In this document: positions 6,913 to 23,328 of the stretch, piece by piece
How positions within the stretch are numbered: the stretch's first letter is position 1
How the letters are laid out: each line of letters begins with the position of its first letter
DNA from: an uncultured Gammaproteobacteria bacterium
GTDB lineage: Bacteria > Pseudomonadota > Gammaproteobacteria > Pseudomonadales > Halieaceae
DNA length: 64,000 nt
Direction of reading: 5' to 3'
Assembly: GCA_963704965.1 (NCBI GenBank)
Contig: CAVPIH010000018.1
Coordinates: 57,684 to 121,683, forward strand
Made by a program: the position numbers and the translations under genes
Notes under the pieces: generated by a model
Seen by the model: only the letters and a program-made list of their open reading frames with translations
What the model was told of the DNA's origin: nothing
Database searches by the model: none

Positions 6913-8094
6913 TCAGCCCACCACGCAGGTGAATTCCGCGTCGTTGAGTTGCGGGCAGAGCGTTCGTAGCGGCTTGCGCTGCTGTTCGTCCAGGGCGTCC
7001 CAGGACTGGCAGAGGTCCCGCCACACGGGTACCTGGAAACTTTTGACCACCGCGCGAAAAGGCTGGTCCATGAGGGTGCCGTCATACAGTGCCTGCCGCT
7101 GGTCGAAGGCCGCCTCGTTGAACAGGGTCTGCCCCCGCTCCACTGCTGCCCGGTACGCGCCGGTATTTTGTCGCATCAGGGGCACGAAGGTCTCTGCAAT
7201 AACCTTCAGTAGTGGACGCAAACTCTCATGCAGATACAGTTTTCCCGCGCTACCCTGGTGTCCGCCGTCGCGAATCATGCACAGCCACTGGAGGGTTCGT
7301 GGCGCCAGCTCTCCCAGCAGGCTGGCAGCGCGTCCGTCCACCAGGTTCATGGCGAGCTGGCCGTAGGCACTTGCATCGGCCAGGGTAAAATGTTCCCCAA
7401 GCAGATAGGGCTGCCGCTCCAGTACCGTTTCTATGGCCGCGAGGTATTGGCGCCACGCGTTGTCGAGAAGTTCGTGGGTCGGTGGAAAACCCGGTAGTGC
7501 CGGTGGCGTGAGTTCCCGGCTTACCCCGGCGTCAAATCCCAGCGGAGCCACGCTGAACAAGTAGGGGCAGCGCCGCACCTGGCGTTTTGCCAGGCTGCGG
7601 GCAACTCGCCGGTGCAGGCCCAAAGGAAACAGCTTGCGCATTTCCCGGCTGGTAAACTCGCCCATGCGGTTGGTTGCAGCGGAGATGACCCAGCGATTGT
7701 GGTGCACCATGTAAAGACCGAACTCGTCAAAGGCCTCATCGATAAGTTGGCACGCGAACCGCAGGCCCGGCTCAGGCGGCAACAGTCCCTGGGCGGCTGG
7801 CGTGAGTCGCAGCAGATGGTAGCCGAGTCCGCTGGAATCGTAGTAGAAGGTTTTACCGTCCAGCGTGTAAAAGGGTACAGAAGGGTATTCGTCCAGGCCG
7901 GCCACTCGCGAAGGCAGGCGTTCGATGGACTCGGTACGGATCGCCCGGCGCAATCGCCAGGCCATCCCCAGGGCTCGGGCGCTACTGAGCTGTTCCGGTG
8001 CGCGCTGCCAGGGGATGCCGGCGGCATTTGCCAATGCCTGCATCTTGAGCTGATAGGGAGAGGCCGTGACCCCCCAGAAGGTAATCTGTGGCAT
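6913..8094 (-). CDS. Long GST-like protein with a roughly 100-aa C-terminal extension (paralog 1 of 3)
   Basis: The N-terminus ITFWGVTASPYQLKMQALANAAGIPW looks like the thioredoxin-like GST_N fold with an SPY motif. QPYLLGEHFTLADASAYGQL looks like GST_C. The C-terminal tail is shared with the genes at 9803 and 22285. I prefer the ATG at 8094, which has AAGGGA 5 nt upstream. The track start at 8115 is a TTG. Confidence 0.7.
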   Translation of the reverse strand: MPQITFWGVTASPYQLKMQALANAAGIPWQRAPEQLSSARALGMAWRLRRAIRTESIERLPSRVAGLDEYPSVPFYTLDGKTFYYDSSGLGYHLLRLTPAAQGLLPPEPGLRFACQLIDEAFDEFGLYMVHHNRWVISAATNRMGEFTSREMRKLFPLGLHRRVARSLAKRQVRRCPYLFSVAPLGFDAGVSRELTPPALPGFPPTHELLDNAWRQYLAAIETVLERQPYLLGEHFTLADASAYGQLAMNLVDGRAASLLGELAPRTLQWLCMIRDGGHQGSAGKLYLHESLRPLLKVIAETFVPLMRQNTGAYRAAVERGQTLFNEAAFDQRQALYDGTLMDQPFRAVVKSFQVPVWRDLCQSWDALDEQQRKPLRTLCPQLNDAEFTCVVG

Positions 8095-8146
8095 TGGGGT
8101 CCCTTGAAGATTCAAGCTGGTTCATGGTTTTCTGGTGTCGTAAAAT

Positions 8147-8165
8147 ATGGCATAAATGCTGCCAT
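8147..8165. promoter_or_regulatory. Candidate operator palindrome ATGGCA-N7-TGCCAT (site 1 of 4)
   Basis: The sequence is ATGGCATAAATGCTGCCAT, with perfect 6-bp inverted arms and an AT-rich spacer. It lies in the divergent intergenic region between GST-like paralog 1 and the TetR gene. It matches site 2 at 16 of 19 positions. Confidence 0.6.
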
Positions 8166-8236
8166 AAGATGATCGGCCATGCCGGTTCCTATGATAATAT
8201 AGCTGATGAAGACGAATACGATACCTGGACCTCATA

Positions 8237-8833
8237 GTGAACAAGAGCGCGCAGATAGAAATCACCGTCGTTCCGGACGGCAGGCGCCTGCGCAGCGAGC
8301 GCAGCAAGCAGGCCATCATCGACGCGTCCCTGGCGCTGATGGAGGAGGGCAACCTCATCCCCACGGCACAACAGATTTCCGACCGTTCGGGGGTGGGCAT
8401 TCGATCCTTTTTTCGTCACTTCGAGGATATGGAGAACCTGTTTGCCACCATCGAGCAACAGATTCGTGAGACGACTGAAGCGCTGTTTCTTGGGGGTGAT
8501 CGGGACGGGACTCTTGAAGAGCGCGTGCTGCACGCGGTAGAGCGTCGCGCGGCGGGCTACGAAGTGGAGCGGAATATGATTCTCTCCACGCTTGCCCAGT
8601 TGTGGCGCTCGGAAACCCTGCGCCGAAACTACGCCCGTTACCAGCGCGGCTTGCGCAAGGACCTGGACGATTGGCTGCCGGAACTGGCGCAATTGACAGG
8701 CAACCAGCGCGAGGCCGTGGACGCGCTGACCTCCTTCGAAATGTGGCACCGCCTGCGCTATCACCAGGGGCTTGGTAAGGCGGCGGCCATCGATGTTATC
8801 GTCGGCATGCTGAAAGCGCAGCTACAGGGATGA
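8237..8833 (+). CDS. TetR/AcrR-family transcriptional regulator
   Basis: 198-aa ORF with a GTG start. The N-terminal HTH is RSKQAIIDASLALMEEGNLIPTAQQISDRSGVGIRSFFRHFEDMENLF. It is a clear paralog of the TetR gene at 60936. Confidence 0.85.
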   Translation: MNKSAQIEITVVPDGRRLRSERSKQAIIDASLALMEEGNLIPTAQQISDRSGVGIRSFFRHFEDMENLFATIEQQIRETTEALFLGGDRDGTLEERVLHAVERRAAGYEVERNMILSTLAQLWRSETLRRNYARYQRGLRKDLDDWLPELAQLTGNQREAVDALTSFEMWHRLRYHQGLGKAAAIDVIVGMLKAQLQG

Positions 8834-8948
8834 GCGTTCTCAGGAATGAATAGCCCCCGGCGGTTCCTCGCCCTGTAATCCGTTTGCGTCCTCTGCCTGT
8901 CAGCCTGCTATGCAGGGCCGGCAAAGTTGCTTTCCCAGGAGATTGCCC

Positions 8949-9806
8949 ATGAAAAAGTTACTCACCATCGCCGTCGTGCTGTTCGCCCTGGTCGGGGCCT
9001 TGTTGCTATCACTGCCCACGATTTTGCACAGCGCCGGCCTGCACCCCGAATATGACGGACCATCGGTGGCTTTGCCTGGCAAGCGCGCCCTGATCATCAC
9101 TACCAGCCACGGAGTGCTGGCGGCGCCGGGACAAACCGGGGGCCCTGCCACCGGTGTGTTTGGTTCCGAGCTGACTCACCCCTACTACACTTTCCTGGAT
9201 GGTGGCATGGAAGTCGACGTGGCCAGTATCCGCGGTGGTTCAATACCCGTTGATCCCCAGAGCTTCCTGTTCATGATCAAGTCACCCGAGGACGAGCGTT
9301 ACCTCAACGACCCCGTAGCACAGGCCAGGGTGAAGAACTCCATTCCTATTGCCGAGGTGGATATCGACCAGTACGACATTGTGTTCATCTCGGGAGGCTG
9401 GGGGGCAGCCTATGACCTGGCGCAATCCCCCGAACTGGCGGCAAAGGTGAGCGCAGCCTATTACGGCCACAAGGAGGCGATTATCGGCGGTGTCTGCCAC
9501 GGCGTGCTGGGCCTGGTGAGCGCACGGGACCGGGACGGTGATCTGCTGATTGCCGGACGGCGCATGACCGGCGTGACCGACAAGCAGATCGGGGAACTTG
9601 ATATAGAAATCACGCCGCTGCACCCCGAAACGGAGCTGCGCAAGGCGGGCGCCGTGTTTGAGGCCCAGACGGCATTCAGGGACATTTTCGCCACCCATGT
9701 CGCGGTCGACGATGAGCAGCGCTTTGTTACCGGGCAGAACCAGAACTCCGGGCTGGAAACCGCGCACCTGATGATGCAACTTGTTGCGCAGAGGCAGCAG
9801 CAATGA
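8949..9806 (+). CDS. DJ-1/PfpI (type 1 glutamine amidotransferase-like) protein with an N-terminal signal or anchor
   Basis: ATG at 8949 gives MKKLLTIAVVLFALVGALLLSLP, a hydrophobic N-terminus. IFISGGWGAAYDL and the nucleophile elbow IIGGVCHGVLGL fit the family. The stop overlaps the next start (ATGA at 9803-9806). Confidence 0.7.
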   Translation: MKKLLTIAVVLFALVGALLLSLPTILHSAGLHPEYDGPSVALPGKRALIITTSHGVLAAPGQTGGPATGVFGSELTHPYYTFLDGGMEVDVASIRGGSIPVDPQSFLFMIKSPEDERYLNDPVAQARVKNSIPIAEVDIDQYDIVFISGGWGAAYDLAQSPELAAKVSAAYYGHKEAIIGGVCHGVLGLVSARDRDGDLLIAGRRMTGVTDKQIGELDIEITPLHPETELRKAGAVFEAQTAFRDIFATHVAVDDEQRFVTGQNQNSGLETAHLMMQLVAQRQQQ

Positions 9807-10936
9807 CTTCAAAGGATGTATACCGCCTATACGCCATCACCCACTCACTGTATTCCGGGCGGGCGCGTTCTTACCTGATCAAGCAGGGCATACCGTTCCG
9901 GGAGTTATCCACCGGGCATGAGAGCTTCAAGGCGGAGGTTCTGCCCCGGGGCAAGTTGCCGACCATACCGACCCTGGTGACCCCCTCGGGAGACGTGATT
10001 CGTGACGGTGCCGCCATTATCGAGCACTTCGAGGCGATCGGCGGCCGTCCCTGCCAGCCCACCGGGCCGCGCCAGCAGATCATCAGCGCGCTGTTTGACG
10101 TGATCGGGACCGACGGTCTGTTGCGTCCGGCCATGCACTATCGCTGGAATTTCCCCCAGGACAACCTCGACTTTATCCGCTACCACTTCCTCTATTCGCA
10201 GCGGGACCTGCCACAGCGGGAGCAAAAGACCGAGCAGATGATGGGCCGGATGCGCCACGCGGCGCAGCTGTTCGGTGTTACCGAACAATCGCAGGAACTG
10301 GTGGAGGGTCTGTACCTGGAATACCTCGATGCGCTCAACGCCCACTTCGAGCAATATCCCTACCTGCTGGGCTGGCGCCCGTGCATAGGGGACTTCGGCT
10401 TGCTGGCGCCCATGTATGCTCACCTGGGACGGGATCCTTATCCGGCGCGCTTGATGCAGCAGCGGGCGACCCGTGTTTATCGCTGGGTGGAGCGAATGAA
10501 CCGCGCCGACCAGGACGTGCCGGAGTATTTTGAGGCGGGTACGGACTTCCTGGGCGATGACGAGGTGCCGGCAACCCTGTTGGCGGTGCTGCGTGTGCTG
10601 GCGGAGGACTTTGTGCCGGAGACCCGGGCCGCCGCCGGGCGTATCAACGCCTGGCTGGCGGAGACGCAACCCGAGGCCGGGGTGTCGGCCGTGACGCGAC
10701 CCGGTAGCGGGCCCGGCAACGCCGAATTTTCCCTGCGCGGGCAGACCATCAGTGCCCTGGCCCAGCCCTATCGTTTTTACCTGTTGCAGCGGGTGCAGGC
10801 CATTTACACGGGCCTGGCTTCGCAAGACCGCGCGTTGGTGGATGACATGCTTGCCGCCTGCAATATGTCTGAGCTGCCAGACATCACGCTGGATCGACGG
10901 ATTGCCAGGGCAGACAATCTGGAAGTCTGGACTTGA
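9803..10936 (+). CDS. Long GST-like protein with a C-terminal extension (paralog 2 of 3)
   Basis: 377-aa ORF. YRLYAITHSLYSGRARSYLIKQGIPF looks like GST_N and YPYLLGWRPCIGDFGLLAPM like GST_C. The tail (LAEDFVPETR...YTGLASQDRALVDDMLAAC) is shared with paralogs 1 and 3. Confidence 0.7.
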   Translation: MTSKDVYRLYAITHSLYSGRARSYLIKQGIPFRELSTGHESFKAEVLPRGKLPTIPTLVTPSGDVIRDGAAIIEHFEAIGGRPCQPTGPRQQIISALFDVIGTDGLLRPAMHYRWNFPQDNLDFIRYHFLYSQRDLPQREQKTEQMMGRMRHAAQLFGVTEQSQELVEGLYLEYLDALNAHFEQYPYLLGWRPCIGDFGLLAPMYAHLGRDPYPARLMQQRATRVYRWVERMNRADQDVPEYFEAGTDFLGDDEVPATLLAVLRVLAEDFVPETRAAAGRINAWLAETQPEAGVSAVTRPGSGPGNAEFSLRGQTISALAQPYRFYLLQRVQAIYTGLASQDRALVDDMLAACNMSELPDITLDRRIARADNLEVWT

Positions 10937-10987
10937 TGCACGACCTGATTACCGCATACAGCGGCAACTGATATAGGGAGAAGTAAC

Positions 10988-12202
10988 ATGGGATTTGAAG
11001 TCAGCGAAAATGTTGTGGCGCTGAATGCCAAACTCGAGGCGTTTATGCGGGAGCATATCTACCCCCGGGAGCACGACTGGCAGGCGTTTACCCTGGACCA
11101 GGACAACCTTTGGCAAGTGCCACCGTGGTTTGACGGCTTGCGGGAGAAGGCCAGGGCCGCGGGACTTTGGAACCTGTTCCTGCCCCACGAGTACCAGCCC
11201 TGGAGCCCCGGCTTGACCAATGCCGAAATCGCCCCGCTGTTTGAAACCATGAGCAAGGTGATGTGGGCGCAAGCGGTGTTTAACTGCAACGCGCCGGATC
11301 GCGGCAATATGGAGGTGCTGGCAAAGTACGGCACGCCTGAACAGCAGAAGCGGTGGCTGGAGCCCCTGCTGGCGGGCGAGATTCGCTCGGCCTACGCCAT
11401 GACCGAACCCCAGGTGGCTTCGTCCGATGCCACCAATATGGAACTGGAGATCAAGCGCGACGGCGATGAGTACGTGCTCAACGGCCGCAAATGGTGGACC
11501 ACCAACGCCGTGGGCGGGCGCTGCAAGATCATGCTGGTGATGGGCTTGTCCAACCCCGATGCGGAGCGCCACCGCCGGCACTCCACCATTCTGGTGCCGC
11601 GCGATACCCCGGGAATTACGCTGGTGCGCCCCTTGCGGGTGTTTGATAATTTGCATTCGCCAGGCGGCGAAGCGGAGTTCCTGTTCGAGGATGTACGGGT
11701 ACCTGTTGGCAACATGATCAAGGGCGAGGGCTGCGGTTTCGAGATTGCGCAGGGCCGCCTCGGGCCGGGCCGTTTCCAGTATGCGATGACCCTGGTGGGT
11801 GCGGCGCAGCGCTGCCTGGAGTTGATGTGCGCACGCGCCGAGGAGCGCGTGGCATTCGGCGAGAAACTCAGCAAGAAAACCAGTGTCCAGCATGAGATCG
11901 CCCGCTGTCGTTGCGAGATCGAACAGTGTCGCCTGCTGGTCCTGCAGGCCGCGGAGGTGATGGACAAGCAGGGTATGAAGGCCGCCTTGCCCTACATCTC
12001 CATGGTCAAGATTGTCGCGCCGCAGATGGCGCAGAACGTGGCCGATCGCGCCATGCAGGTGTTCGGCGGTATGGGCGTCTGCCAGGACACACTAATCCCC
12101 GACGTGTTCACCCACGCGCGCTTCTGCCGTATCGCGGATGGCCCGGACGAGGTGCATATGTCGCAGCTGGCCAAGCTGACCATCCGCGACCTGGTGGGAT
12201 AA
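10988..12202 (+). CDS. Acyl-CoA dehydrogenase (FadE2/ACAD10-11-like)
   Basis: 404-aa ORF. The N-terminus LEAFMREHIYPRE...LWNLFLP is followed by YAMTEPQVASSDATNM and a C-terminal RFCRIADGPDEVH. GGGAGAAG lies upstream of the ATG. Confidence 0.85.
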   Translation: MGFEVSENVVALNAKLEAFMREHIYPREHDWQAFTLDQDNLWQVPPWFDGLREKARAAGLWNLFLPHEYQPWSPGLTNAEIAPLFETMSKVMWAQAVFNCNAPDRGNMEVLAKYGTPEQQKRWLEPLLAGEIRSAYAMTEPQVASSDATNMELEIKRDGDEYVLNGRKWWTTNAVGGRCKIMLVMGLSNPDAERHRRHSTILVPRDTPGITLVRPLRVFDNLHSPGGEAEFLFEDVRVPVGNMIKGEGCGFEIAQGRLGPGRFQYAMTLVGAAQRCLELMCARAEERVAFGEKLSKKTSVQHEIARCRCEIEQCRLLVLQAAEVMDKQGMKAALPYISMVKIVAPQMAQNVADRAMQVFGGMGVCQDTLIPDVFTHARFCRIADGPDEVHMSQLAKLTIRDLVG

Positions 12203-12205
12203 CAA

Positions 12206-14407
12206 TCAGAAAACGTACCGCAGGGTTGCCCCGTAGGTGCGCGGTGCAGCCAGGAATTCTGCCTGCATGCCGGTCAGCAAAAAGGGTGCCGCCGACAGCG
12301 ACGAATAGGATTCGTCGGTGGCGTTCTTAACCCATAGGGACGCATCCCAGCTATCGTTGCGCCAGCCTAGGCGGGCGTTGACCAGTTCCCGGTTCTGCTC
12401 GGTGTCCGGGGGCTGGTAGGTTGCATTGGTGTAGTGATCACCCATGAAGCTGTAGTCGGCGCGCAGGTAAGTCATGCCCCCGGCGAGAGGCAGGAGCAAG
12501 GTGGCGGCAATATTGCCACTCCAGTCCGGGGCGAAAACGACGTCGAACCGCTCCAGTTCCCCCTCGGTGTATTTAGCGTCCAGGTACTGCAGGCCGCCGT
12601 CCAGGATCAGGTTGGGGAGTGGCATGGCCGTAAATCCCAGGTCGACCCCTTCGATTTCAGCCCTGGCGGCGTTGCTTACGAAGGTGCCGGCACCGATTGG
12701 CTTCTGGGCTAAAAACTGCAGATCGTCGAACTCAGAGTAAAATGCCGTGGCGTTCAGTTTGAGCCGGTTTTCGAACAGCTCTGTTTTCACCCCCAATTCG
12801 TAGTTGGTGGTTTTCTCTTCCTCGAACTCGAGTTGGGGGTCACCCGGGTTGTTGAATCCCGGTGACTTGGTGCCCGTGGCCACAGAGGCGAACAACATGG
12901 TGTCGTCGCCGAGGAAGTAGCGCAGATTTGCCAGCCAGGTGAATCCGTCCTTCTCCAGGTCTTCGTTGCCGGCGCCGGGCGCGGCGATCAGATCGACGAA
13001 AGTGGGCACTCCTGGAATATTCGCGGCCGGTGCCGTGGAGACGTTTTCTACATACCCATCCACCGTCTTCTCCTCGGCGGTATAGCGCAGGCCCAGGGTC
13101 AGCAGCCACTCATCGGTAAAGCTGTAGGTAGTCTGGCCGAAGGCGGCATAGACATCGGTTTCGTAGTTGGCCTTGGCGGTAATGTAGTCACCGGGTGCAG
13201 CCAATACCGCCAACTGTGGCCCGAAAGTGACGGTGCCGACCGAGAGGATATCCTCGCCCAGGATGGTGAAGGGTTCAGGGTTGTCCCGCTTGTTTTCCTC
13301 GTGCAGGTAGTAGAGTCCGGCCAGATACTGCAGGGGGCCGTCCAGATCGCTGCTGAGGCGGAACTCCTGGGACCAGGCACTGCCCGAGAAGGTGTCGTTG
13401 ACAAAGTAGAGAATGTCGAACTGGGACCGGTCGGCGTCCGCTGAGGACTTGTAATCATATTCGTTCCAGGCAGTGAGAGAAGTCAGTTGCGCCCGGTCCA
13501 TATCGTAGTCGACGTTCAGGATCACCATATCTGACGTCATGGTGAATTCACTGCTCCGGTCGGCGTTGTTTTTCCAGTCCCAGGCATCGTTTTTGGGTAC
13601 CGGCAAATCGTTTTCCGCCAACAGGGCCAGCAGGGTTTCCGTCTGCAGTGCGTCCGCCGCGCAGCAGCGGTCATCGCGGTCGACGTGGCTTGCCGTCAGC
13701 ATAATGCTCCAGGCATCGGTCGGCAGCCACTGTATCTTCCCCCGCAGATTCCAGTCCTGCGCCGACATCTGGTCCGGGCCAGTTCCGTTCTCCAACCAAC
13801 CATCCTGCTCGCGCCAGTTGCCTGCCATCCGGTAGGCGAGTTCGTCATTGACCGGACCTGTCACCGACGCGGTGTACTGCTGCAGGCCGTAGTCGCCCAC
13901 CGTTCCCTCCAGGTAACCTTCGACTTCCTCGAAATTCGGGTTGCTGGTTACGACGCTGACGACACCGGCGTTGGAGTTCTTGCCGTACAGAGTGCCCTGG
14001 GGGCCCTGCAGTACCTCGACGCGCTCGATATCCGTCAGGTCTGACATACCCAGGCCGGAGCGCCCCATGTAGACCCCGTCGACCACAAAGGCAACCGACG
14101 CCTCCAGGGCGATGGAATTCTGGGAGGTGCCGATACCGCGAATACGTATGCCAGTGGCAAACGGACTGAGATTAGTGGTGGTGGTCAGTGACGGCACCAG
14201 CTGTGCCACGTCGGCCAGGTCGACGACGCCGGCGGCCTGCAGGGTCTCTGCAGTGACCGCGTTCACCGTGACCGGAATGTCCTGCAGGCTCTCCGCCCGT
14301 TTGGTTGCCGTCACTACTACCTCTTCGAGGGCGCCGGTCAGGCCCAGCGCGGCGGAAGCATAAATTGTCAGGGCGATGGCAGACGCAAGCGGCTTGATGT
14401 TCCGCAT
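12206..14407 (-). CDS. TonB-dependent outer-membrane receptor
   Basis: 733-aa ORF with a signal peptide (MRNIKPLASAIALTIYASAALG) and a TonB-box/plug region (EEVVVTATKRAESLQDIPVTVNAV). The C-terminal beta-barrel ends in TYGATLRYVF. GGAG lies 9 nt before the ATG. Confidence 0.9.
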   Translation of the reverse strand: MRNIKPLASAIALTIYASAALGLTGALEEVVVTATKRAESLQDIPVTVNAVTAETLQAAGVVDLADVAQLVPSLTTTTNLSPFATGIRIRGIGTSQNSIALEASVAFVVDGVYMGRSGLGMSDLTDIERVEVLQGPQGTLYGKNSNAGVVSVVTSNPNFEEVEGYLEGTVGDYGLQQYTASVTGPVNDELAYRMAGNWREQDGWLENGTGPDQMSAQDWNLRGKIQWLPTDAWSIMLTASHVDRDDRCCAADALQTETLLALLAENDLPVPKNDAWDWKNNADRSSEFTMTSDMVILNVDYDMDRAQLTSLTAWNEYDYKSSADADRSQFDILYFVNDTFSGSAWSQEFRLSSDLDGPLQYLAGLYYLHEENKRDNPEPFTILGEDILSVGTVTFGPQLAVLAAPGDYITAKANYETDVYAAFGQTTYSFTDEWLLTLGLRYTAEEKTVDGYVENVSTAPAANIPGVPTFVDLIAAPGAGNEDLEKDGFTWLANLRYFLGDDTMLFASVATGTKSPGFNNPGDPQLEFEEEKTTNYELGVKTELFENRLKLNATAFYSEFDDLQFLAQKPIGAGTFVSNAARAEIEGVDLGFTAMPLPNLILDGGLQYLDAKYTEGELERFDVVFAPDWSGNIAATLLLPLAGGMTYLRADYSFMGDHYTNATYQPPDTEQNRELVNARLGWRNDSWDASLWVKNATDESYSSLSAAPFLLTGMQAEFLAAPRTYGATLRYVF

Positions 14408-14438
14408 TATTACACTCCATTTTTATACTTATCTTAAA

Positions 14439-15294: not shown

Positions 15295-15336
15295 TTCCAG
15301 GCGCTACCCGCCAGTCGGGTTGTGAAACCCGCGCGT

Positions 15337-15978: not shown

Positions 15979-15980
15979 TG

Positions 15981-16643: not shown

Positions 16644-16739
16644 GGGAGTTTCCCGTGCTGGTGTGGTAACGCCTTGCACTACCGCCAGGGCGTGTACAAG
16701 GGCTTCCAGATAATGAATCTGCTGCACGCAGCCTTACAT

Positions 16740-16760
16740 ATTGACAGCCTGTATGTCAAT
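16740..16760. promoter_or_regulatory. Perfect inverted repeat ATTGACA-N7-TGTCAAT
   Basis: The sequence is ATTGACAGCCTGTATGTCAAT, with 7-bp perfect arms and a 7-nt spacer. It lies between the BVMO stop (16788) and the start of the downstream membrane-protein gene (16643). The arms are AT-rich, so it looks more like an operator or promoter element than a terminator. Confidence 0.4.
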
Positions 16761-16787
16761 AAGATGGGCTGCGATGTCCAGGCCTGC

Positions 16788-18308
16788 CTAGCCGTTCACA
16801 ACGGCCTGTGCGGGGCGGGTGCCGTAGACGAGTTGCGGCTCGTCCAGGTCCAGGGCGGGGAGGATATCTTTCTCTATGTAATAGTCGTTGCAGAAGGTCC
16901 AGGGTTCGTGGCTCCCCTGTTTCGGCAACAGGTGCATGCTGCGCTGCAAATAGCCCGGGTTGAAGTCGTCGCTGGAGATCCAGGGCAGCGGCTCCATGGC
17001 CTGCTCGCTCGCCAGCAGGGTGGGCGTCACACTGGTGGCGCCTTTGTGATCCATGTGATTCAGCATGCGGCAAACCACATCCGCAAGCAGGTCGACCCGC
17101 ATCGTCCAACTGGTGCGCAGGTAACCGAACATGGCAGCCATATTGGGGATTCCGGAATTCATGAAGCCGCGATAGGTGAAGGTGCGGGCGAAATCCACGG
17201 GCTTGCCGTCCAGGTCGAAAGCGATGTCGCCCATCACGCAGATGTCGAAGCCGGTGGCCGTGACAATGATATCCGCCTCCAGCAACTCGCCGGAGCGGGT
17301 GAGGATGCCCTTGTCGGTAAAACGCTCTATATGGTCGGTCACCACGGACACCTTGCCGGACTTGATCGAATCGAACAGGTCGCCGTCAGGCACATAGGCA
17401 ATGCGCTGCTGCCAGGGTCGGTAGGAGGGGGTGAAATGGGACATGTCGAAGTCCTCCCCCAGGTAGTCGCGAATCACCCTGAACAGTTCTTCCTTCATCG
17501 CCTCCGGGTCCTGTTCCGACGCCTGGTAGATATCCTGCCCCAGTTTGAGCAGATCCCGGCGCACGATATCGTGAACGATGTCTTCCTCCACTCCCAGCCC
17601 GCGCAGGCGATCCGCCAGTTCGTTGCGATTCTCGCCGGTCCAGAAATAGGTGGGCGAGCGCTGCAGCATGGTGATGTGCTCGCAGTCCTGGGCCATGTTG
17701 GGGATCAGGGTCGCGGCGGTGGCACCGGAGCCTATGACCACTACCCGCTTGCCCTTGTAGTCCAGGTCCTCCGGCCAGGTCTGGGGGTGGACGATAGTCC
17801 CCCCGAATTCGTCCATACCCTGCCATTGGGGTGTATAACCCTGCTCGTGGCGATAGTAGCCCTGGCACATCCACAGGAAGCTGGCGGTGAAGTGCGCGAT
17901 GTCGCCACTGGCAGCGCGCTTCGCCTCAATAATCCAGTGCTGGTCTTCGCTGGACCAGGAGGCGCTCAGCACCTGGTGTTGATAGCGAATGTGCTGGTCG
18001 ATGTGGTCGTCTTCGATAGCCTCTCCCAGGTAGTCCAGGATCGCGTCGGCCGCGGCGACAGGTTTGCCCGACCAGGGCTTGAAGCCATAGCCGAAGGTGT
18101 ACAGGTCGCTGTCCGAACGCACGCCCGGGTAACTGTGCTGGCGCCAGGTACCACCGAATGAGGCCTTGTTTTCAAGCATGACGAAGGTCTTGCCGGGGCA
18201 CTTGGCCAGCAGGTGGTGCGCCGCGTCGATGCCGGAGATGCCGGCGCCGACAATCAATACGTCGAAGTGTTCGCTGGTCGGGGTGTGCATGGCGGTTACT
18301 GTGGACAT
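16788..18308 (-). CDS. Baeyer-Villiger-type flavin monooxygenase (class B FMO/BVMO)
   Basis: FAD motif VGAGISG, BVMO fingerprint FGGTIVHPQTWPED (FxGxxxHxxxWP) and NADPH motif VIGSGATA. I prefer the ATG at 18308, which has AGGGAGA 8 nt upstream. The track start at 18344 is a GTG. Confidence 0.85.
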   Translation of the reverse strand: MSTVTAMHTPTSEHFDVLIVGAGISGIDAAHHLLAKCPGKTFVMLENKASFGGTWRQHSYPGVRSDSDLYTFGYGFKPWSGKPVAAADAILDYLGEAIEDDHIDQHIRYQHQVLSASWSSEDQHWIIEAKRAASGDIAHFTASFLWMCQGYYRHEQGYTPQWQGMDEFGGTIVHPQTWPEDLDYKGKRVVVIGSGATAATLIPNMAQDCEHITMLQRSPTYFWTGENRNELADRLRGLGVEEDIVHDIVRRDLLKLGQDIYQASEQDPEAMKEELFRVIRDYLGEDFDMSHFTPSYRPWQQRIAYVPDGDLFDSIKSGKVSVVTDHIERFTDKGILTRSGELLEADIIVTATGFDICVMGDIAFDLDGKPVDFARTFTYRGFMNSGIPNMAAMFGYLRTSWTMRVDLLADVVCRMLNHMDHKGATSVTPTLLASEQAMEPLPWISSDDFNPGYLQRSMHLLPKQGSHEPWTFCNDYYIEKDILPALDLDEPQLVYGTRPAQAVVNG

Positions 18309-18433
18309 GGATTGTATCTCCCTGGGATATGATTCCTGAGCCACTATCCTAGCGCTGGAGGGGGAGGCGGTGACATTGCCAAACGGGACGGAAAATTGAT
18401 ATTTTGGGACATATTCGGTCTATTGGGTAATGC

Positions 18434-19519
18434 ATGAAGCAGGGCTCCACGATCCTGGCCAGCGGCAACCTCGCCAGTCCCCGCCGCTTGATAGCGGGCA
18501 TACTGGGCCAGTTCGGCTTTCTCGGTATCGACGGGGATGCCGCCCGGGCCATCATCACCAGTGCCGGCCTGCCGGCGCGGGCCCTGCAGGAGCCGGATTT
18601 CCCGGTGTCGCTGCAACAGGAACTGGAAATCATAGCCGTGCTGGTGGCCCAATTGCCCGCGGGCACATCTCCCATCCGGCTGCTGTTCGGCGCGCTCCCC
18701 GACCTGGGTATAGACAACCTGGGGGTGGTGGGCATGGCCATGTGCCATGCCGGGACCGCCATCGATGCCCTGAAGGTGCCGCTCACCTACCCGGAGTTGA
18801 CCATGGGGCACTGCCGCATGCTGGTGCGGCGCCGGCAGGAAACGGCAGTGTTTGTCTTTCAAATGGACCGGCCGAGCTTGCCGGATGCTGACGATGCCCT
18901 CACGGACCGCCTGATGCAGTACTGCATGGTACTGGATCTCACCAGCTCGCTGCGCAATATCGAGGACATGCTCGGCTCCGATCGACTGCCTGTGGCGGTG
19001 ACTTTGCCCTACCCGGAGCCCGAGGACTGGGCCGCGGTTGCCCGGGACCTGCACTTCCCGGTGCAATTCTGCGCGGAGGAGGCCAGCTTCACCTACCCGG
19101 CAGCCCTCAATCGCGCGCCGCTGCCAAAAGCCAATCCCGTGATGCATGCCATGTACGTGTCCATTGCCGACAAGCTGTCCCTGATGCTGGCCGAGGAAGT
19201 GGGGCTGGCGGAGCGGGTAAGTCGCTGGTTGTGGGCGTATACACCCTCCTTGAGTCGGGGGGAAATCGCGGAGCTTATGGCGATGTCGGAGCGCAACCTC
19301 ACCCGCCAGCTGAGCGCGGCGGGCACCTCCTACTCCGAGTTGTTGGCCCGCGTGCAATCCGAGCGTGCCTGCAACCTGCTGCGCAACCGGGGACTGTCGG
19401 TGTCCCAGATCGGCTACCGGCTGGGATATGCCGAGCCGGCGGCCTTTACCCGGGCATTCACCCGCTGGACGGGGCAGTCGCCGCTCAAATGGCGCCAGGC
19501 GCACGGTGGCGCGGATTGA
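18434..19519 (+). CDS. AraC-family transcriptional regulator
   Basis: 361-aa ORF. The C-terminal AraC HTH is MSERNLTRQLSAAGTSYSELLARVQSERACNLLRNRGLSVSQIGYRLGYAEPAAFTRAFTRWTGQSP. It is divergent from the BVMO gene. Confidence 0.85.
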   Translation: MKQGSTILASGNLASPRRLIAGILGQFGFLGIDGDAARAIITSAGLPARALQEPDFPVSLQQELEIIAVLVAQLPAGTSPIRLLFGALPDLGIDNLGVVGMAMCHAGTAIDALKVPLTYPELTMGHCRMLVRRRQETAVFVFQMDRPSLPDADDALTDRLMQYCMVLDLTSSLRNIEDMLGSDRLPVAVTLPYPEPEDWAAVARDLHFPVQFCAEEASFTYPAALNRAPLPKANPVMHAMYVSIADKLSLMLAEEVGLAERVSRWLWAYTPSLSRGEIAELMAMSERNLTRQLSAAGTSYSELLARVQSERACNLLRNRGLSVSQIGYRLGYAEPAAFTRAFTRWTGQSPLKWRQAHGGAD

Positions 19520-19616
19520 CGGGTGGTCGCTGCCGCGCAGCTGCCGAGGAGGTCGTTTATAACACCCGCAAGTGTGCTATCGTCGCGGCTTTCCCGACCA
19601 TCAAAGGAGCACAACA

Positions 19617-19907
19617 ATGGCTTTAGGATTACTGGCAACCATCACCGTCCAGGAAGGCAAGAACGCTGAATTCGAGAAGGTGTTCATGGACCTGACCGCG
19701 CAGGTGCGCGCCAACGAACCGGGCAATATTTTTTATATCCTGCATCGCAGCAAGTCCAACCCGCAGGTGTACAAGGTGATGGAACAGTACGAGAGCGCCG
19801 AGGCACTCGAGGCGCACGGCAAGACCGACTACTTCCGCGAAGCCAACAAGGCGCTGGGCGCGCTGGTGGCCGCCGCGCCGGAGATCGAGGTGTTGGACAC
19901 CGTCTGA
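19617..19907 (+). CDS. Antibiotic-biosynthesis-monooxygenase (ABM) domain protein
   Basis: The ATG at 19617 follows AAAGGAG. The 96-aa product reads MALGLLATITVQEGKNAEFEKVF...YKVMEQYESAEALEAHGKTDYF, typical of the ABM ferredoxin-like fold. Confidence 0.75.
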   Translation: MALGLLATITVQEGKNAEFEKVFMDLTAQVRANEPGNIFYILHRSKSNPQVYKVMEQYESAEALEAHGKTDYFREANKALGALVAAAPEIEVLDTV

Positions 19908-19951
19908 ATGCCCGCCGATCCAGGCCGGCGGCGCGGCAGGGCGGGCGGTTC

Positions 19952-21022
19952 CTACAGCCCTTCGCGGGTGAGAATGATCTCGTCGGAACCGGCGGGTAGT
20001 GAAAAGCTCACGCCGTCCTGGCCAATGGTGTAGTTCGGGAAGATCTCCCCGGCACCATCCAGGTACAGGATATCCTGGCCGGGAAACACCAGCGGCGGCA
20101 CGATGTGGTAGTACAGCAGGTGGCCGACGCCGGCATCCCGGGCGGTCTCCGCGGCTTCAACAGGGCTGGCGTGGTAGGTCAGGATATCGTCGGTGATCTG
20201 CGCCATGATCGGGTTGCCGCTTTGCGCGGCGGCGGCGTGCATCATCCCCACCAGGTTCGGGGCCAGCGCCTCGTGCACCAGCAGGTCCACGCCCTGGGCG
20301 AATTTTTCGATATTGGCGAGCTTGACCGTGTCCCCGGTTATCAGCAGGGAGCGGTCCTTGTAAGTGAAGCGATAGCCCACCGCGGGCTCCACGGGGGAGT
20401 GGTCCACCGCCAGCGCCTCCACAGTCAGGTCGCCAGTGCTGTAAAGGGTGACCAGTTCCCCGGCGCCGGGCTTGGTGAAACTCTTCGCCACCATGCCGGC
20501 GCCGCTCAGCGGGGCCACGCTGTCGCCGTGGTGGGCGTGGCGATAGTCGGCATCGAAGGCGTAGGCGGTATTGAATCCGTCCACGACCTGCTGGACACCC
20601 TCCGGCCCGTAGACGGGCAGGGGGCTGGTGTGGGCGCCGCTGGCCCAGCGAATCGTGGCAGTCTCACCGAGGCCGTCGATATGATCGGAATGGAAGTGGG
20701 TGAGAAACACCGCCTCGATATCCGCCGGCTGGTATCCCATCCTGGAAATATTGCGCACGCCGTCTGTGCCGGCGTCCACCACGAACATCTGCTTCCCGGC
20801 CACTACCACCACGCAGGGGCCGGAGGCGTTGGGCGCCGGCATCGGGCCGCCGGCGCCACACAGGGCCAGGTGCAGTCCGTCCTCCAGGGTGTCGATCATG
20901 TTCGCGCCCATGCGGGCCTCCAGGCCCTTCTCCATAACCCTGGTGACTATGGTTGCGCGCTGGCTATAGGCCAGCAGCCCGATGGCAATTATCGCCAGGG
21001 CGATGAGGAGTGTTTTTTTCAT
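19952..21022 (-). CDS. MBL-fold metallo-hydrolase (RNase Z/arylsulfatase-like), membrane-anchored or secreted
   Basis: 356-aa ORF. The N-terminal hydrophobic segment is MKKTLLIALAIIAIGLLAY. The metal motif is FLTHFHSDHIDGL (HxHxDH), followed by a later HEAL...YHASP. Confidence 0.8.
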   Translation of the reverse strand: MKKTLLIALAIIAIGLLAYSQRATIVTRVMEKGLEARMGANMIDTLEDGLHLALCGAGGPMPAPNASGPCVVVVAGKQMFVVDAGTDGVRNISRMGYQPADIEAVFLTHFHSDHIDGLGETATIRWASGAHTSPLPVYGPEGVQQVVDGFNTAYAFDADYRHAHHGDSVAPLSGAGMVAKSFTKPGAGELVTLYSTGDLTVEALAVDHSPVEPAVGYRFTYKDRSLLITGDTVKLANIEKFAQGVDLLVHEALAPNLVGMMHAAAAQSGNPIMAQITDDILTYHASPVEAAETARDAGVGHLLYYHIVPPLVFPGQDILYLDGAGEIFPNYTIGQDGVSFSLPAGSDEIILTREGL

Positions 21023-21037
21023 TGCAGTTTCCAGTTA

Positions 21038-21056
21038 ATGGCACATATGATGCCAA
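21038..21056. promoter_or_regulatory. Candidate operator palindrome ATGGCA-N7-TGCCAA (site 3 of 4)
   Basis: The sequence is ATGGCACATATGATGCCAA, with one mismatch at the outermost arm position. It begins 16 nt upstream of the MBL-fold gene ATG, in the divergent region shared with the dehalogenase-like gene. Confidence 0.5.
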
Positions 21057-21245
21057 TACAGTAGCATTGCACGGGTCGGAAATATACGGGTAATGGGCAG
21101 GTCATCGGGCCCTTTTTGCGGAGCTGGTGCTTTTTTCCATTGATATGGCAACCTGCGTCTTGAGGTATTCGCCCATACCCGTTTAAGGTGATCCCGCGCA
21201 GGCGTTATCGCCGCCGCCAACATTCTCGACAAGGACTGAATTTTC

Positions 21246-22241
21246 GTGGAATTCAAACGCACACCCGAGGAAAGATTTGCCGAGCTTGCGGATTACTCCT
21301 TCGCTCCCCACTACCTGCAGGTGAGTGATACGGAGGGTGGGCAGCTGCGAATTCACTACCTGGACGAAGGTCCACCCACTGGCGACGTGGTGCTGTTGCT
21401 GCACGGCCAGCCTGCCTGGAGCTACCTCTATCGCCACATGATTCCGCTGCTGGTGGCGCGAGGCTTCCGTGTCCTGGCGCCCGACCTGGTGGGCTTCGGT
21501 CGTTCCGACAAGCCCACCCGGATGCAGGATTACACCTACGCACGACATATCACCTGGATGAGTGAGTGGCTCACCGCCCTGGACCTGAAGGGCATTACCG
21601 TGTTCTTCCAGGACTGGGGCAGCCTGATCGGGCTGCGCCTGGTGACGGCCTTCCCGGAACGCTTTGCCAGGGTGGTACTGGCCAATGGTGGTCTGCCCGC
21701 GGGCACCATCCCGGCGCAACACACGGACGCCCTGAAACAGGCCTACGAGACCCTGCCGGTGGTGCCGGCAAGGGAATTGAATGCGCGCTTTCGGGACCGC
21801 AGCGGCATTCCCGGCTTCCTGTACTGGCGCAAATTCTGCGCCGCCAGCCCCGACCTGGACATTGGCAGCCTGATGGCGGCGGTCTCGGCCAGGCCGCTGT
21901 CAGCCGCGGAAATAGCCGCCTACTCGGCGCCCTTTCCCGACCAGAGCTATATGGCGGGGGCGCGCCAGTTCCCCAGCCTGGTGCCGGTGTTTCACGATGA
22001 ACCGGAAGTGGAGGAGAACAAGGCGGCCTGGGAAGTGCTGCGCCGCTTTGACAAGCCGTTCATGCTGGCATTTGCGGACGGCGATCCGGTGACGGCTGGC
22101 GGCGACAAGAAATTTATCGCCGAAGTGCCCGGCTGCGAGGGCATTGCCCACCGCACAATCAAGGACGCAGGCCACTTCCTGCAACAGGACCAGCCCGGGC
22201 AATGCGTACAGGCGATCCTGGACATCTGCGGCCGGGCTTGA
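21246..22241 (+). CDS. Haloalkane-dehalogenase-like alpha/beta hydrolase (HLD-I-like)
   Basis: 331-aa ORF with a GTG start. Motifs are RIHYLDEGP, LLLHGQPAWSYLYRHMIP, DLVGFGRSDKP, the nucleophile motif FFQDWGSLIGL (Asp) and a C-terminal DAGHFLQQDQP (His). Confidence 0.75.
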   Translation: MEFKRTPEERFAELADYSFAPHYLQVSDTEGGQLRIHYLDEGPPTGDVVLLLHGQPAWSYLYRHMIPLLVARGFRVLAPDLVGFGRSDKPTRMQDYTYARHITWMSEWLTALDLKGITVFFQDWGSLIGLRLVTAFPERFARVVLANGGLPAGTIPAQHTDALKQAYETLPVVPARELNARFRDRSGIPGFLYWRKFCAASPDLDIGSLMAAVSARPLSAAEIAAYSAPFPDQSYMAGARQFPSLVPVFHDEPEVEENKAAWEVLRRFDKPFMLAFADGDPVTAGGDKKFIAEVPGCEGIAHRTIKDAGHFLQQDQPGQCVQAILDICGRA

Positions 22242-22284
22242 ATGGCACAGGCCGACAACTGAACTTCGATGCGGAGGTGCGCGC

Positions 22285-23328
22285 GTGTTAACAGACGACT
22301 GTATTCGACTGGTGGGTAATACCGGCTCGCCCTATACACAGAAAATGGTGGCGCTGCTGCGCTACCGGCGGGTGCCCTATGCCATTACCTGGGGCGAACC
22401 GGGCGCGGTCTGCGATGCCCTGGGGGTGCAAAGGCCCAGGCCGGTTTTCATGCCCACTTTTTTCTTCCCTGGTGACGGTGGTGAAATGCAGGCGGTGTGC
22501 GACTCCACCCCGATCATTCGCCGCCTCGAGGAAATGTATCCGGAACGTTCCGTCCTGCCCGGGGACCCGGCCCTGGCCTTCATCGACTACCTGATAGAGG
22601 ACTTCGCCGACGAGTGGTGCACCAAGTACATGTTTCACTACCGCTGGTACCCCGCGCAGGATGCCGACAACGCGGGCACGCTGCTGCCACTGGGCCTGGA
22701 TGTGAGCATGCCCGCTGAGCAGTTGCAGGAAGCCAAACACTGGTTTTCCCAGCGCCAGATCGGGCGCCTCTACGTGGTGGGATCCAACGACACCACCGCA
22801 CCGGTGATCGATGCCAGCTACCGGCGTTTCCTGGCTGCCATGGAGAGCCACCTGGCCAGCCAGAAGTTCACGCTGGGCGGCCGCCCCGGGGCGGGTGATT
22901 TCGGCCTGCACGGCCAGCTGACCCAACTGGTGGGATTCGACCCCACGCCGCGGGCCATCGCCCACGAGGTTTCGCCCCGCACGGTCGCCTGGGTCGATCG
23001 CATGCGGGACCAGAGCGGCCTGGAACCGCAGGACAGCGACTGGGTGGCGCTGGAAGACCAGCCGGACAGCCTGCGCGGGCTGCTCACGGAAATTGGCCGG
23101 GTCTACGCGCCCGCGCAGCTTGCCAACGCCAGGGCGGTACAGGCGGGGGAGAAAACCTGGGAGTGCGAGATCGACGGTGCCACCTGGACCCAGCAGACCT
23201 TCCCCTACCAGGCCAAGTGCCTGCGGTGGACCAACGAACGCTACCGGGCGCTGGGCGCGCAGGATCGTGCCCGTGTGGACGCACTGCTCGCGGGCACGGG
23301 CACAGAGGATATGTTGTTGCAGTCCTGA
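22285..23328 (+). CDS. Long GST-like protein with a C-terminal extension (paralog 3 of 3)
   Basis: The GTG at 22285 gives VLTDDCIRLVGNTGSPYTQKMVALLRYRRVPY, the same SPY..K motif as paralog 1. GGRPGAGDFGLHGQL looks like GST_C. The tail is YRALGAQDRARVDALLAGT. The longer track ORF from 22144 overlaps the previous gene. Confidence 0.7.
   Translation: MLTDDCIRLVGNTGSPYTQKMVALLRYRRVPYAITWGEPGAVCDALGVQRPRPVFMPTFFFPGDGGEMQAVCDSTPIIRRLEEMYPERSVLPGDPALAFIDYLIEDFADEWCTKYMFHYRWYPAQDADNAGTLLPLGLDVSMPAEQLQEAKHWFSQRQIGRLYVVGSNDTTAPVIDASYRRFLAAMESHLASQKFTLGGRPGAGDFGLHGQLTQLVGFDPTPRAIAHEVSPRTVAWVDRMRDQSGLEPQDSDWVALEDQPDSLRGLLTEIGRVYAPAQLANARAVQAGEKTWECEIDGATWTQQTFPYQAKCLRWTNERYRALGAQDRARVDALLAGTGTEDMLLQS

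Follow-up and report, generated by a model that had tools for sequence, protein, structure and literature searches.

A palindrome associated with a TetR-family regulator marks a conserved gene set with long glutathione S-transferase-like proteins in Halieaceae and Porticoccaceae

A 64,000-nucleotide stretch of contig CAVPIH010000018.1 from an uncultured member of the Halieaceae (assembly GCA_963704965.1, positions 57,684 to 121,683 of the forward strand; hereafter "the window") contains three long glutathione S-transferase (GST)-like genes, P1, P2, and P3, in transcription units that start at copies of a shared palindrome, together with the gene for a TetR-family regulator. Gene calls are based on a listing of open reading frames (ORFs) in the window and on scans with Pfam and NCBIfam. 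P1 (393 amino acids; positions 6913 to 8094, minus strand; GST_C_2, 28.8 bits) is divergent from an operon on the plus strand that opens with the TetR-family regulator, a candidate repressor with an N-terminal TetR-type helix-turn-helix (8237 to 8833; TetR_N PF00440, 25.5 bits against a cut-off of 24). This operon continues with a DJ-1/PfpI (Hsp31-like) protein with an N-terminal hydrophobic anchor (8910 to 9806; DJ-1_PfpI, 36.2 bits), P2 (377 amino acids; 9803 to 10936; GST_N_3, 30.6 bits), whose start overlaps the DJ-1 stop by 4 bp, and an acyl-CoA dehydrogenase (ACAD) of the ACAD10/11 type (10988 to 12202; four ACAD domains). A TonB-dependent receptor of the outer membrane (TBDR), for which both the plug (PF07715, 73 bits) and the 22-strand barrel domain (PF00593, 128.7 bits) were matched in Pfam, is encoded on the minus strand at 12206 to 14407, and a 226-amino-acid Cys-containing protein of unknown function with an N-terminal anchor (unk226; no Pfam or NCBIfam match) on the plus strand at 14614 to 15294. 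A two-gene unit on the minus strand encodes unk219, a 219-amino-acid protein of unknown function with an N-terminal anchor and no family match (15981 to 16640), followed by GST213, an ordinary 213-amino-acid GST (15337 to 15978; GST_N_3, 82.3 bits; GST_C_3, 33.8 bits). An anchored MBL-fold (RNase Z-like) hydrolase (19952 to 21022, minus strand; Lactamase_B_2, 64 bits) adjoins, on the plus strand, a haloalkane dehalogenase of subfamily I (HLD-I; 21246 to 22241; NF002043, 427.1 bits against a cut-off of 265) followed by P3 (347 amino acids; 22285 to 23328; GST_N_3, 32.4 bits; GST_C_2, 25.3 bits). Finally, a DUF2855 protein (51865 to 52950, plus strand; PF11017, 310.5 bits) precedes, on the same strand, an N-terminally anchored sulfatase of the formylglycine type (53014 to 54705; PF00884, 190.2 bits), the translation of which contains the C/S-x-P-x-R motif as CAPSR.

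The palindrome has a 17-bp core, TGGCA-N7-TGCCA, with AT-rich flanks. Its exact form ATGGCA-N7-TGCCA occurs at positions 8147, 14439, 21038, and 51734, and with up to one mismatch there are 10 strand-matches in the window against 2.25 expected, a number reached in 0 of 100 shuffles. A 25-bp weight matrix was built from AT-flanked matches in the window and in related loci (87 seed sites). At 20 bits or more it finds exactly six sites in the window, all six of them intergenic, and the sole other position with 10 bits or more is a shifted overlap of the site at 8148. Putative operator 1 (TGGCATAAATGCTGCCA; 8148 to 8164; 27.1 bits) lies between P1 and the TetR operon, and its center is 62 bp away from where P1 starts and 81 bp away from where TetR does. 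Putative operator 2 (TGGCATAAACTGTGCCA; 14440 to 14456; 34.1 bits) lies between the TBDR and unk226 genes and has a weak tandem copy 25 bp away, putative operator 2b (TGGCAGAGACTATGTTA; 14465 to 14481; 21.2 bits). Putative operator 3 (TGACAGCCTGTATGTCA; 16742 to 16758; 21.9 bits) is upstream of unk219-GST213, and putative operator 4 (TGGCACATATGATGCCA; 21039 to 21055; 28.7 bits) separates the MBL gene from HLD-P3. Putative operator 5 (TGGCATTATAAGTGCCA; 51735 to 51751; 32.5 bits) lies between a LysR gene and DUF2855-sulfatase, upstream of the latter, of which the DUF2855 gene is the first. A sequence-only reading of this DNA had placed each of the three long GST-like genes in a unit that starts at a palindrome, and the sites at 8148 and 21039 and the gene calls bear this out, as does the site at 14440 for its claim that a further copy precedes both the TBDR gene and the divergent unk226. 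Its three palindrome sites are all real, although three more (14465, 16742, and 51735) had been missed; likewise, the genes it had named as members stand, but the sulfatase, DUF2855, and ordinary GST genes had not been recognized as belonging to the set.

When one genome per species was scanned, a P2 relative turned up in at least 596 genomes, and 80 loci of up to 21 kb were kept, from Halieaceae, Luminiphilus, Porticoccaceae/SAR92 (including HTCC2207), and remoter clades (loci are designated L plus a number). The motif scan covered 81 related loci and the window (1.33 Mb), with the expectation taken from Markov-1 random sequence. At 20 bits or more there are 123 sites against about 1 expected, 112 of them outside rough ORF calls, with a median distance of 59.5 bp from the site center to the nearest start codon; 35 of the 123 lie between divergent genes, and 34 loci have two or more sites. 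Across the loci, a pattern derived solely from the window leads to the same result as the weight matrix. These counts, together with the shuffles, exclude chance palindromes, and a mobile or REP-like repeat is also excluded, since the sites share a core of 17 to 25 bp alone and their flanks differ.

The sites also stand before the same genes from one locus to the next. The gene found most often as the first downstream of a site is DJ-1 (13 loci), followed by HLD (12), P3 (10), TBDR (9), MBL (8), unk219 (7), sulfatases (5 + 2), TetR (5), P2 (4, and 3 more for P2-like genes), enoyl-CoA hydratase (4), NMO (3), P1 (2), and DUF2855 (2). With up to one mismatch and AT-rich flanks, the pattern precedes orthologues of TetR, DJ-1, MBL/P3, TBDR/HLD, P2, unk219, the sulfatase, DUF2855, and GST213, and this placement is seen in both Halieaceae and Porticoccaceae. 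In Halioglobus maricola, a P1 orthologue (58% identity) is divergent from TetR, with a 28.8-bit site between the two (L001:2826) that is equivalent to operator 1, and a 34-bit site separates P3 from a fourth long GST. Sites are located 37 to 69 bp upstream of TBDR orthologues (L001, L002, L005, L008, L011, L028, and L058), with a tandem pair in L028 (14303 and 14328) resembling operators 2 and 2b, and 53 to 225 bp upstream of unk219 orthologues (L002, L006, L040, L043, L045, L050, and L058). One common site serves divergent MBL/P3 pairs in L040, L042, L043, L044, L047, and L050 and TBDR/HLD pairs in seven loci. P3 orthologues have a site 34 to 135 bp upstream in about 13 loci, the DUF2855 orthologue of L011 has one about 310 bp upstream, and sites precede sulfatase orthologues in L001 and L058 and the GST213 orthologue in L021.

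Gene content around P2 was counted by tblastn of the window proteins against the 82 loci. Sulfatases were found in 45 loci, TetR in 34, unk219 in 28, HLD in 24, DJ-1 and MBL in 18 each, ACAD and unk226 in 16 each, TBDR in 15, ABM in 11, and DUF2855 in 3; a P3 orthologue with at least 45% identity lies near P2 in about 29. P2 is about 80% identical to proteins of H. maricola, Kineobactrum sediminis, and many Halieaceae metagenome-assembled genomes, P3 is about 80% identical across Halieaceae, and the window ACAD is 91 to 93% identical to its Halioglobus and Kineobactrum orthologues. Orthologues of unk226 (67 to 86% identity in the 16 loci) also adjoin P2 in clades that have no motif, and HLD, P2, and unk226 stay together there. 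Orthologues of the window-type sulfatase, at about 50% identity, adjoin TetR or P2 in many loci, and long-GST genes neighbor DUF2855 in L054 as well as in L084, which is from an unrelated genome. One super-cluster in H. maricola, about 35 kb in size, contributes a further two ACADs, an enoyl-CoA hydratase, a patatin, a thiolase, NMO, and WS/DGAT. The gene set is thus conserved in Halieaceae (OM60/NOR5) and Porticoccaceae (SAR92), and we have little doubt that a regulon exists. The sequence-only reading had looked to motif copies upstream of orthologues and to conserved synteny as its checks, and the recurrence of both speaks for it.

The adjacent TetR is most likely the protein that binds the palindrome. 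We propose it from gene context, because sites precede TetR orthologues, TetR alone recurs as a regulator, site density follows its presence, and the core is symmetric. An inverted repeat lies in the promoter region of the TetR gene itself as well as in those of its putative targets, and the two-fold symmetric 17-bp core is found between TetR and P1 both in the window and in H. maricola. Sites stand upstream of TetR orthologues in L001, L002, L004, L005, L048, L055, and L058, and TetR is the last gene of a site-initiated unit in L040, L050, and L054. Sites of at least 24 bits number 1.10 per 10 kb where TetR is present, 0.59 in loci with a close P2 but no TetR in the stretch fetched, and 0.15 in the outgroup P2 clades, which have neither the motif nor a TetR orthologue. 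A core with two 5-bp arms and a 7-bp spacer suits a TetR dimer. The best matches of this TetR in PDB and NCBIfam, DesT and FabR, are marginal (E of about 0.002 to 0.008). In L044 (positions 1506 to 1534; SAR92), a direct 12-bp repeat, AGTCTGGCATAGAGTCTGGCATAGA, with half-site-like TGGCA copies and unlike the usual palindrome, lies just upstream of the TetR orthologue.

The palindrome might instead be read by a different regulator, global or encoded elsewhere, with TetR controlling its own neighborhood or another target. In the window, a LysR gene flanks the site at 51735 and an AraC gene lies inside the cluster, and in 30 loci with a close P2 there are sites and no TetR within the fetched region. 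Against this, no regulator except TetR recurs (34 of 82 loci compared with a single locus for AraC), in both families sites precede TetR or TetR closes a site-initiated unit, and the clades that lack the motif lack the TetR orthologue too; moreover, a palindrome of this geometry fits neither the T-N11-A box of LysR regulators nor the direct repeats of AraC regulators. We consider another reader of the palindrome distinctly unlikely. It is harder still to credit the motif as a sigma-54 promoter (-24 TGGCAC and -12 TTGC) rather than an operator: TGGCA-N7-TGC does correspond to GG-N10-GC, and the core spacing of sites 1 to 5 fits that consensus on at least one strand, but among the 87 seed sites the third half-site position holds G in only 72% and A in 20%, which breaks the GG and GC dinucleotides that should be near-invariant on one strand. 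Many functional-looking sites, strong ones included, carry TGACA/TGTCA on both arms (for example, those at window position 16742 and at L083:9931), the 35 sites between divergent genes serve both sides, and no gene for an enhancer-binding protein is among the genes annotated in the loci. Because the dinucleotides are not kept and conservation is two-fold symmetric, flanks included, we reject the sigma-54 reading, whose likelihood we put close to nil. Fur, CRP, and LexA boxes were set aside on general grounds, as their half-sites and spacing differ.

The long GSTs are themselves unusual. P1, P2, and P3 align end to end, the C-terminal extension included, at 21 to 26% identity, and from their sequences they are ancient paralogues rather than recent copies; the shared extension of about 100 amino acids and the strings reported by the sequence-only reading (SPY..K, YLLG/GDFGL, F.P, and QDR..V..LLA) are all present. 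A profile of the three paralogues matches 3,131 clusters (50% identity) at an E value of 0.001 or less and 524 at 1e-30 or less, and most matches are full length (335 to 405 amino acids). In a 102-sequence alignment, Pro56, Asp68, Arg114, Trp115, Gly190, and Trp228 are invariant, and Ser15, Lys20, His112, and Asp197 are at least 90% conserved. By comparison with known GSTs, we assign these residues to a serine-type G-site, the cis-proline, the acid that binds the gamma-glutamyl group, the N-capping Asp, and a family-specific HYRW motif.

The AlphaFold2 model of P2 has a predicted local distance difference test score (pLDDT) of 95.5, and a Foldseek search with it against PDB returned only ordinary GSTs (probability, 1.0). 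The best structural relatives, GSTFuA3, StyI, and LigF, align over about 230 to 277 columns with query-normalized TM scores of at most 0.47 and 11 to 21% identity. Sequence searches of PDB with P2 and with the family profile likewise recovered only ordinary GSTs, over the N domain and part of the C domain. The C-terminal module spans about 100 to 140 amino acids across the long GSTs. When the last 142 residues of P2 were modeled alone (pLDDT, 92.4), they formed a helix of 32 residues, a beta-hairpin, a pair of helices, and a terminal hairpin, the last being present in the P2 type, and a fold search of PDB with this module found no match (best E, 0.39; TM score, at most 0.26). Pfam and NCBIfam hold no model specific to the long-GST family, the names in source records are generic, and the NCBIfam IsoI model scores 26 bits against a cut-off of 300. 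The thioredoxin-like N domain, helical C domain, and conserved G-site residues place P1 to P3 in the GST superfamily. With identities of at most 21%, where class level is about 40%, with different domain boundaries, and with 377 residues in P2, they fall outside any characterized class as judged from these comparisons (beta, theta, zeta, Nu, Xi, LigE/F, GSTFuA, and StyI/IsoI), so that the proteins are not, as one alternative had it, ordinary members of such a class.

Domain fusions point to lipid or acyl-CoA substrates for the long GSTs, because members of the family are fused to an acyl-CoA-binding domain (an 89-member cluster) or to an alpha/beta-hydrolase. The hydrolase fusion (L084:1-11088) occurs in an unrelated 4.8-Mb genome near DUF2855, WS/DGAT, GPAT-like, G3P dehydrogenase, and DSBA-like genes. 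On the contig with an acyl-CoA-binding fusion (P0407), the neighbors are a P1-like 393-amino-acid gene, a 220-amino-acid unknown, and an MDR gene of the alkenal reductase type.

The product of 21246 to 22241 is, from sequence, a bona fide HLD-I. It exceeds the family cut-off and matches 5esr with 363 bits and 1b6g with 178 bits, and its QDWGS, FLYWRKF, ADGDPV, and DAGHFLQ segments align with QDWGG, FTAWKYD, GMKDKL, and DAGHFVQ of 1b6g, so that the catalytic pentad of Asp, Trp, Trp, Asp, and His is aligned. In DhlA, the pentad comprises an Asp nucleophile, a His base, an Asp acid, and two halide-stabilizing Trp residues. Relative to 5esr, 6f9o, and 4mj3, the window enzyme has an insertion of about 34 amino acids in the cap (roughly residues 155 to 188), which could alter its substrate range.

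The ACAD matches human ACAD11 (2wbi) at an E value of 6e-115 and 8v3u, also an ACAD11, at 2.7e-114, with the next ACAD group at only 4.5e-41. Mammalian ACAD10/11 phosphorylate 4-hydroxyacyl-CoA and then eliminate the phosphate (PMC12440821, PMC11342911). No homologue of the APH-type kinase partner was found in the window, and a stand-alone APH kinase lies behind motif sites in 11 Porticoccaceae loci, in units that also contain either FadB and a FabK-like reductase or else DUF2855, P3, and TetR. Lipid genes found in the relatives include those for FadB, thiolase, enoyl reductases, enoyl-CoA hydratases, and acyl-CoA synthetases. In about 30 loci, a DUF4345 membrane protein and a sulfatase of about 600 amino acids are encoded directly before P2, and the sulfatase stop overlaps or abuts the P2 start; besides a signal peptide, this translationally coupled sulfatase carries the formylglycine motif as CAPAR and, at its C terminus, a hydrophobic helix. 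The window lacks this module, which in relatives lies between DJ-1 and P2 (see L001:6945-10004), and this looks like a deletion or relocation. On inspection, the DJ-1, MBL, unk226, unk219, and window sulfatase sequences all start with a basic residue and a hydrophobic helix, which suggests that these proteins act at the membrane, with a topology predicted from these features; the DJ-1/PfpI protein also has a Cys-His motif, GVCHG. A search of PDB with DUF2855 gave nothing significant (crotonyl-CoA reductase at an E value of 0.89). Taken together, the sulfatase coupling, the anchors, the dehalogenase, the ACAD, the fusions, the lipid genes, and the grouping of HLD, P2, and unk226 beyond the motif point to lipid or acyl-CoA chemistry. 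Steroid catabolism and polysaccharide utilization were set aside by reasoning rather than by a formal test, as no steroid-catabolic or carbohydrate-active genes are among those annotated.

Several other genes lie within or around the set. A flavin monooxygenase (16788 to 18344, minus strand; FMO/BVMO-like), an AraC regulator (18434 to 19519, plus strand; HTH_18 and Arabinose_bd), and an ABM monooxygenase (19572 to 19907, plus strand; ABM, 73.8 bits) sit within the cluster without a motif copy of their own. In H. maricola (L083), orthologues of ABM and AraC likewise neighbor the P3 unit, and the P2 operon of Porticoccaceae includes ABM. P3 is followed, after a 267-bp gap and on the same strand, by an ABC ATPase and a 969-amino-acid ABC-2/ABC_transp_aux (GldG-like) fusion (23596 to 27502). 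A Xi-class-like GST of 318 amino acids with a CPWAHR motif of the glutathionyl-hydroquinone reductase type (49549 to 50505, minus strand) adjoins the LysR gene that flanks the site at 51735; no palindrome copy is directly upstream of it. The sulfatase at 53014 to 54705 is followed on the same strand by a NUDIX-like ORF (54724 to 55461) and then by ACAD-like coding sequence (about 55540 to 57841), and the DUF2855-sulfatase unit may be longer and extend into these. The flanks of the regulon are rich in lipid genes, with two acyl-CoA synthetases at 486 to 3680, enoyl-CoA hydratases up to 5516, another acyl-CoA synthetase at 57917 to 59749, and an NMO/FabK-like reductase at 61511 to 62533; none of these flanking genes (486 to 5516 and 57917 to 62533) has a motif copy of 10 bits or more.

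Our favored reading, which we hold to be probable though by no means assured, is a TetR-repressed, substrate-inducible regulon for the uptake and catabolism of functionalized long-chain aliphatic compounds, with the adjacent TetR as the binder of the palindrome. A TetR dimer would bind TGGCA-N7-TGCCA about 20 to 140 bp upstream of start codons, often at a position common to divergent genes, and would keep at least eight of the window's units repressed: P1; TetR-DJ1-P2-ACAD; TBDR; unk226; unk219-GST213; MBL; HLD-P3; and DUF2855-sulfatase. Induction would come about when a lipophilic ligand, which would be the substrate or else an acyl-CoA intermediate, frees the repressor. The TBDR would carry the substrate across the outer membrane, and anchored enzymes, presumed to face the periplasm, would process it; these would be the formylglycine sulfatases, which would remove sulfate, the MBL hydrolase, and the DJ-1/Hsp31-like protein. 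In the cytoplasm, HLD-I and the long GSTs may remove leaving groups or rearrange the chain, the latter as serine-type GST-fold enzymes with an extra C-terminal module that would act on lipid or acyl-CoA-linked substrates. The product would then enter a specialized branch of beta-oxidation for awkward hydroxyl positions, represented in the window by the ACAD11-type dehydrogenase and apparently extended in relatives by the APH kinase, FadB, thiolase, FabK-like enoyl reductases, enoyl-CoA hydratases, and acyl-CoA synthetases. The predicted substrate is a functionalized long-chain aliphatic compound of algal origin that would be sulfated (certainly so in relatives with a coupled sulfatase, if this scheme holds) and possibly halogenated, hydroxylated, or epoxidized. 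The repression, the order of the steps, the topology of the anchored proteins, the identity of the substrate, and the role of TetR are all deduced from gene content and context. A system for uptake and either catabolism or detoxification had already been suggested by the sequence-only reading, and catabolism is supported by the extra members in relatives and by the domain fusions; the halogenated ligand that it mentioned is only a guess.

A more specific version, about which we are doubtful, is that this would be the first bacterial pathway to be described for algal lipids that bear both sulfate esters and halogens, such as chlorosulfolipids, kindred alkyl chains with sulfate or halogen substituents, and oxylipins; before beta-oxidation assisted by ACAD11 and APH, the chain would lose one kind of leaving group to the sulfatase, another to HLD-I, and a third to the long GSTs.

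The main rival holds that the regulon serves protection rather than nutrition, as a response to lipid electrophiles such as lipid-peroxidation products, algal oxylipins, and polyunsaturated aldehydes. TetR would sense the electrophile, and the GSTs, the DJ-1/Hsp31-like protein, enoyl reductases, and ACAD11/APH would detoxify it; the two purposes share many enzymes and are not mutually exclusive. At least four GST-fold genes stand behind motif sites, with the Xi-type GST near the site at 51735, the Cys-His motif of the DJ-1/Hsp31-like member would suit such a role, FabK/NMO-type reductases are members in relatives, and a P1-like gene adjoins an alkenal-reductase-type MDR gene in another taxon. 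ACAD11 with APH constitutes a route for 4-hydroxy acids, which arise from 4-hydroxyalkenals (PMC12440821). However, a TonB-dependent importer and the P2-coupled formylglycine sulfatases are core members, dedicated outer-membrane uptake is seldom part of a detoxification regulon, and FadB, thiolase, and acyl-CoA synthetases imply full oxidation of the carbon chain. We consider a purely protective response unlikely, although more deserving of attention than any other rival. A role in making or remodeling neutral or ether lipids that belong to the cell itself, and not in breaking down imported compounds, appears remote by comparison. The fusion of a hydrolase with a long GST does occur in an operon with a GPAT-like acyltransferase, WS/DGAT, G3P dehydrogenase, DSBA, and DUF2855, the H. 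maricola cluster includes WS/DGAT and patatin genes, many members appear on inspection to be anchored in the membrane, and ACAD10 has been tied to ether-lipid metabolism (PMC13596139). The TBDR, exported sulfatases, dehalogenase, FadB, and thiolase are, by contrast, hallmarks of catabolism. Local repression by a TetR-type protein that responds to a small ligand is also typical of inducible catabolism or efflux.

Several observations weigh against the catabolic scheme or its regulatory part. Only 34 of the 82 loci have TetR at 10 kb or less from P2, and 26 sites of at least 24 bits are found in the 30 loci without TetR in the fetched region. The weight matrix was trained on the loci that it scored, which somewhat inflates the scores, and the ORF calls in the related loci are heuristic. 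A scan for consensus sigma-70 promoters and terminators over 6800 to 23500 called no promoter in the operator regions. Part of the proposed pathway is read from relatives, as the window has neither the coupled DUF4345-sulfatase pair nor the APH kinase. The GSTs, DJ-1/Hsp31-like protein, enoyl reductases, and 4-hydroxy-acid branch fit detoxification equally, and the context of the hydrolase fusion, with GPAT, WS/DGAT, and G3P dehydrogenase, hints at lipid synthesis or remodeling.

When phytoplankton bloom in coastal waters, Halieaceae (OM60/NOR5) and SAR92 rank with the most abundant of the bacteria that respond, and most of their TonB receptors are without an assigned substrate. The present analysis supplies a concrete putative operator, a candidate repressor, and a defined gene set across both families. 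It also sets a GST family with more than 3,000 sequence clusters, DUF2855, and two conserved unknown proteins in a functional context for the first time, and it offers a testable route to the long-open question of the natural role of haloalkane dehalogenases. If the substrate is a sulfated or halogenated algal lipid, the regulon would add a new link to the cycling of carbon, sulfur, and halogens in the sea. Should the lipid prove to be both, HLD-I would gain a natural substrate and the long GSTs would form a new class with a C-terminal module that binds the acyl or CoA part.

Among known systems, the closest regulatory likeness is to the TetR-type lipid regulons of PsrA and DesT in Pseudomonas, FadR in Bacillus and Thermus, and KstR in actinobacteria. 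As proposed for the window, a small TetR repressor is combined with palindromic operators common to divergent promoters, and further likenesses are probable autoregulation, control of acyl-CoA dehydrogenases and hydratases, and a presumed lipophilic or acyl-CoA ligand. To our knowledge, TGGCA-N7-TGCCA does not match the PsrA, DesT, FadR, or KstR boxes, and the window set differs from those regulons in its TonB receptor, formylglycine sulfatases, HLD-I, long GSTs, and DUF2855. Proteobacterial TonB catabolic loci of the PUL-like kind similarly co-regulate a TonB receptor with exported hydrolases, including sulfatases, under a local regulator. In contrast to them, no carbohydrate-active enzymes are among the annotated genes here, and the enzymes appear to be directed at lipids or acyl-CoA, many of them being anchored.

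The enzymes have known counterparts as well. With the fungal GSTFuA, the epoxide GSTs StyI/IsoI, and the beta-etherase LigF, the long GSTs have in common the N and C domains, a conserved Ser close to where helix 1 begins, the cis-Pro, the acid of the gamma-glutamyl site, and the N-capping Asp, but they add the HYRW motif and a C-terminal module that is absent from solved GSTs. The lin (lindane) and pcp (pentachlorophenol) pathways pair the dehalogenase LinB with the GST-fold enzymes LinD and PcpC, which strip polyhalogenated skeletons, and so bring a haloalkane dehalogenase and GST-fold enzymes together as the window does. The window enzyme is an HLD-I, not an HLD-II, however, and there are no LinA, LinC, or LinE homologues; instead, sulfatases, a TonB receptor, and beta-oxidation genes accompany it in a set conserved in natural marine clades, unlike a recent xenobiotic recruitment. 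The window ACAD comes about as near to ACAD11 as a bacterial protein can, and the Porticoccaceae APH mirrors the kinase and ACAD chemistry of the mammalian ACAD10/ACAD11 route (PMC12440821, PMC11342911), except that kinase and ACAD are separate genes here and are embedded in a regulon with sulfatases, a dehalogenase, and GSTs. Full-text literature searches returned nothing on the regulon, on DUF2855, or on a dehalogenase together with a sulfatase and TonB in these clades. The regulatory logic of the system, which ecologically dominant bacteria carry, is familiar, and what is new is the class of GSTs with a C-terminal module and the combination of sulfatase, HLD-I, long GST, and ACAD11/APH.

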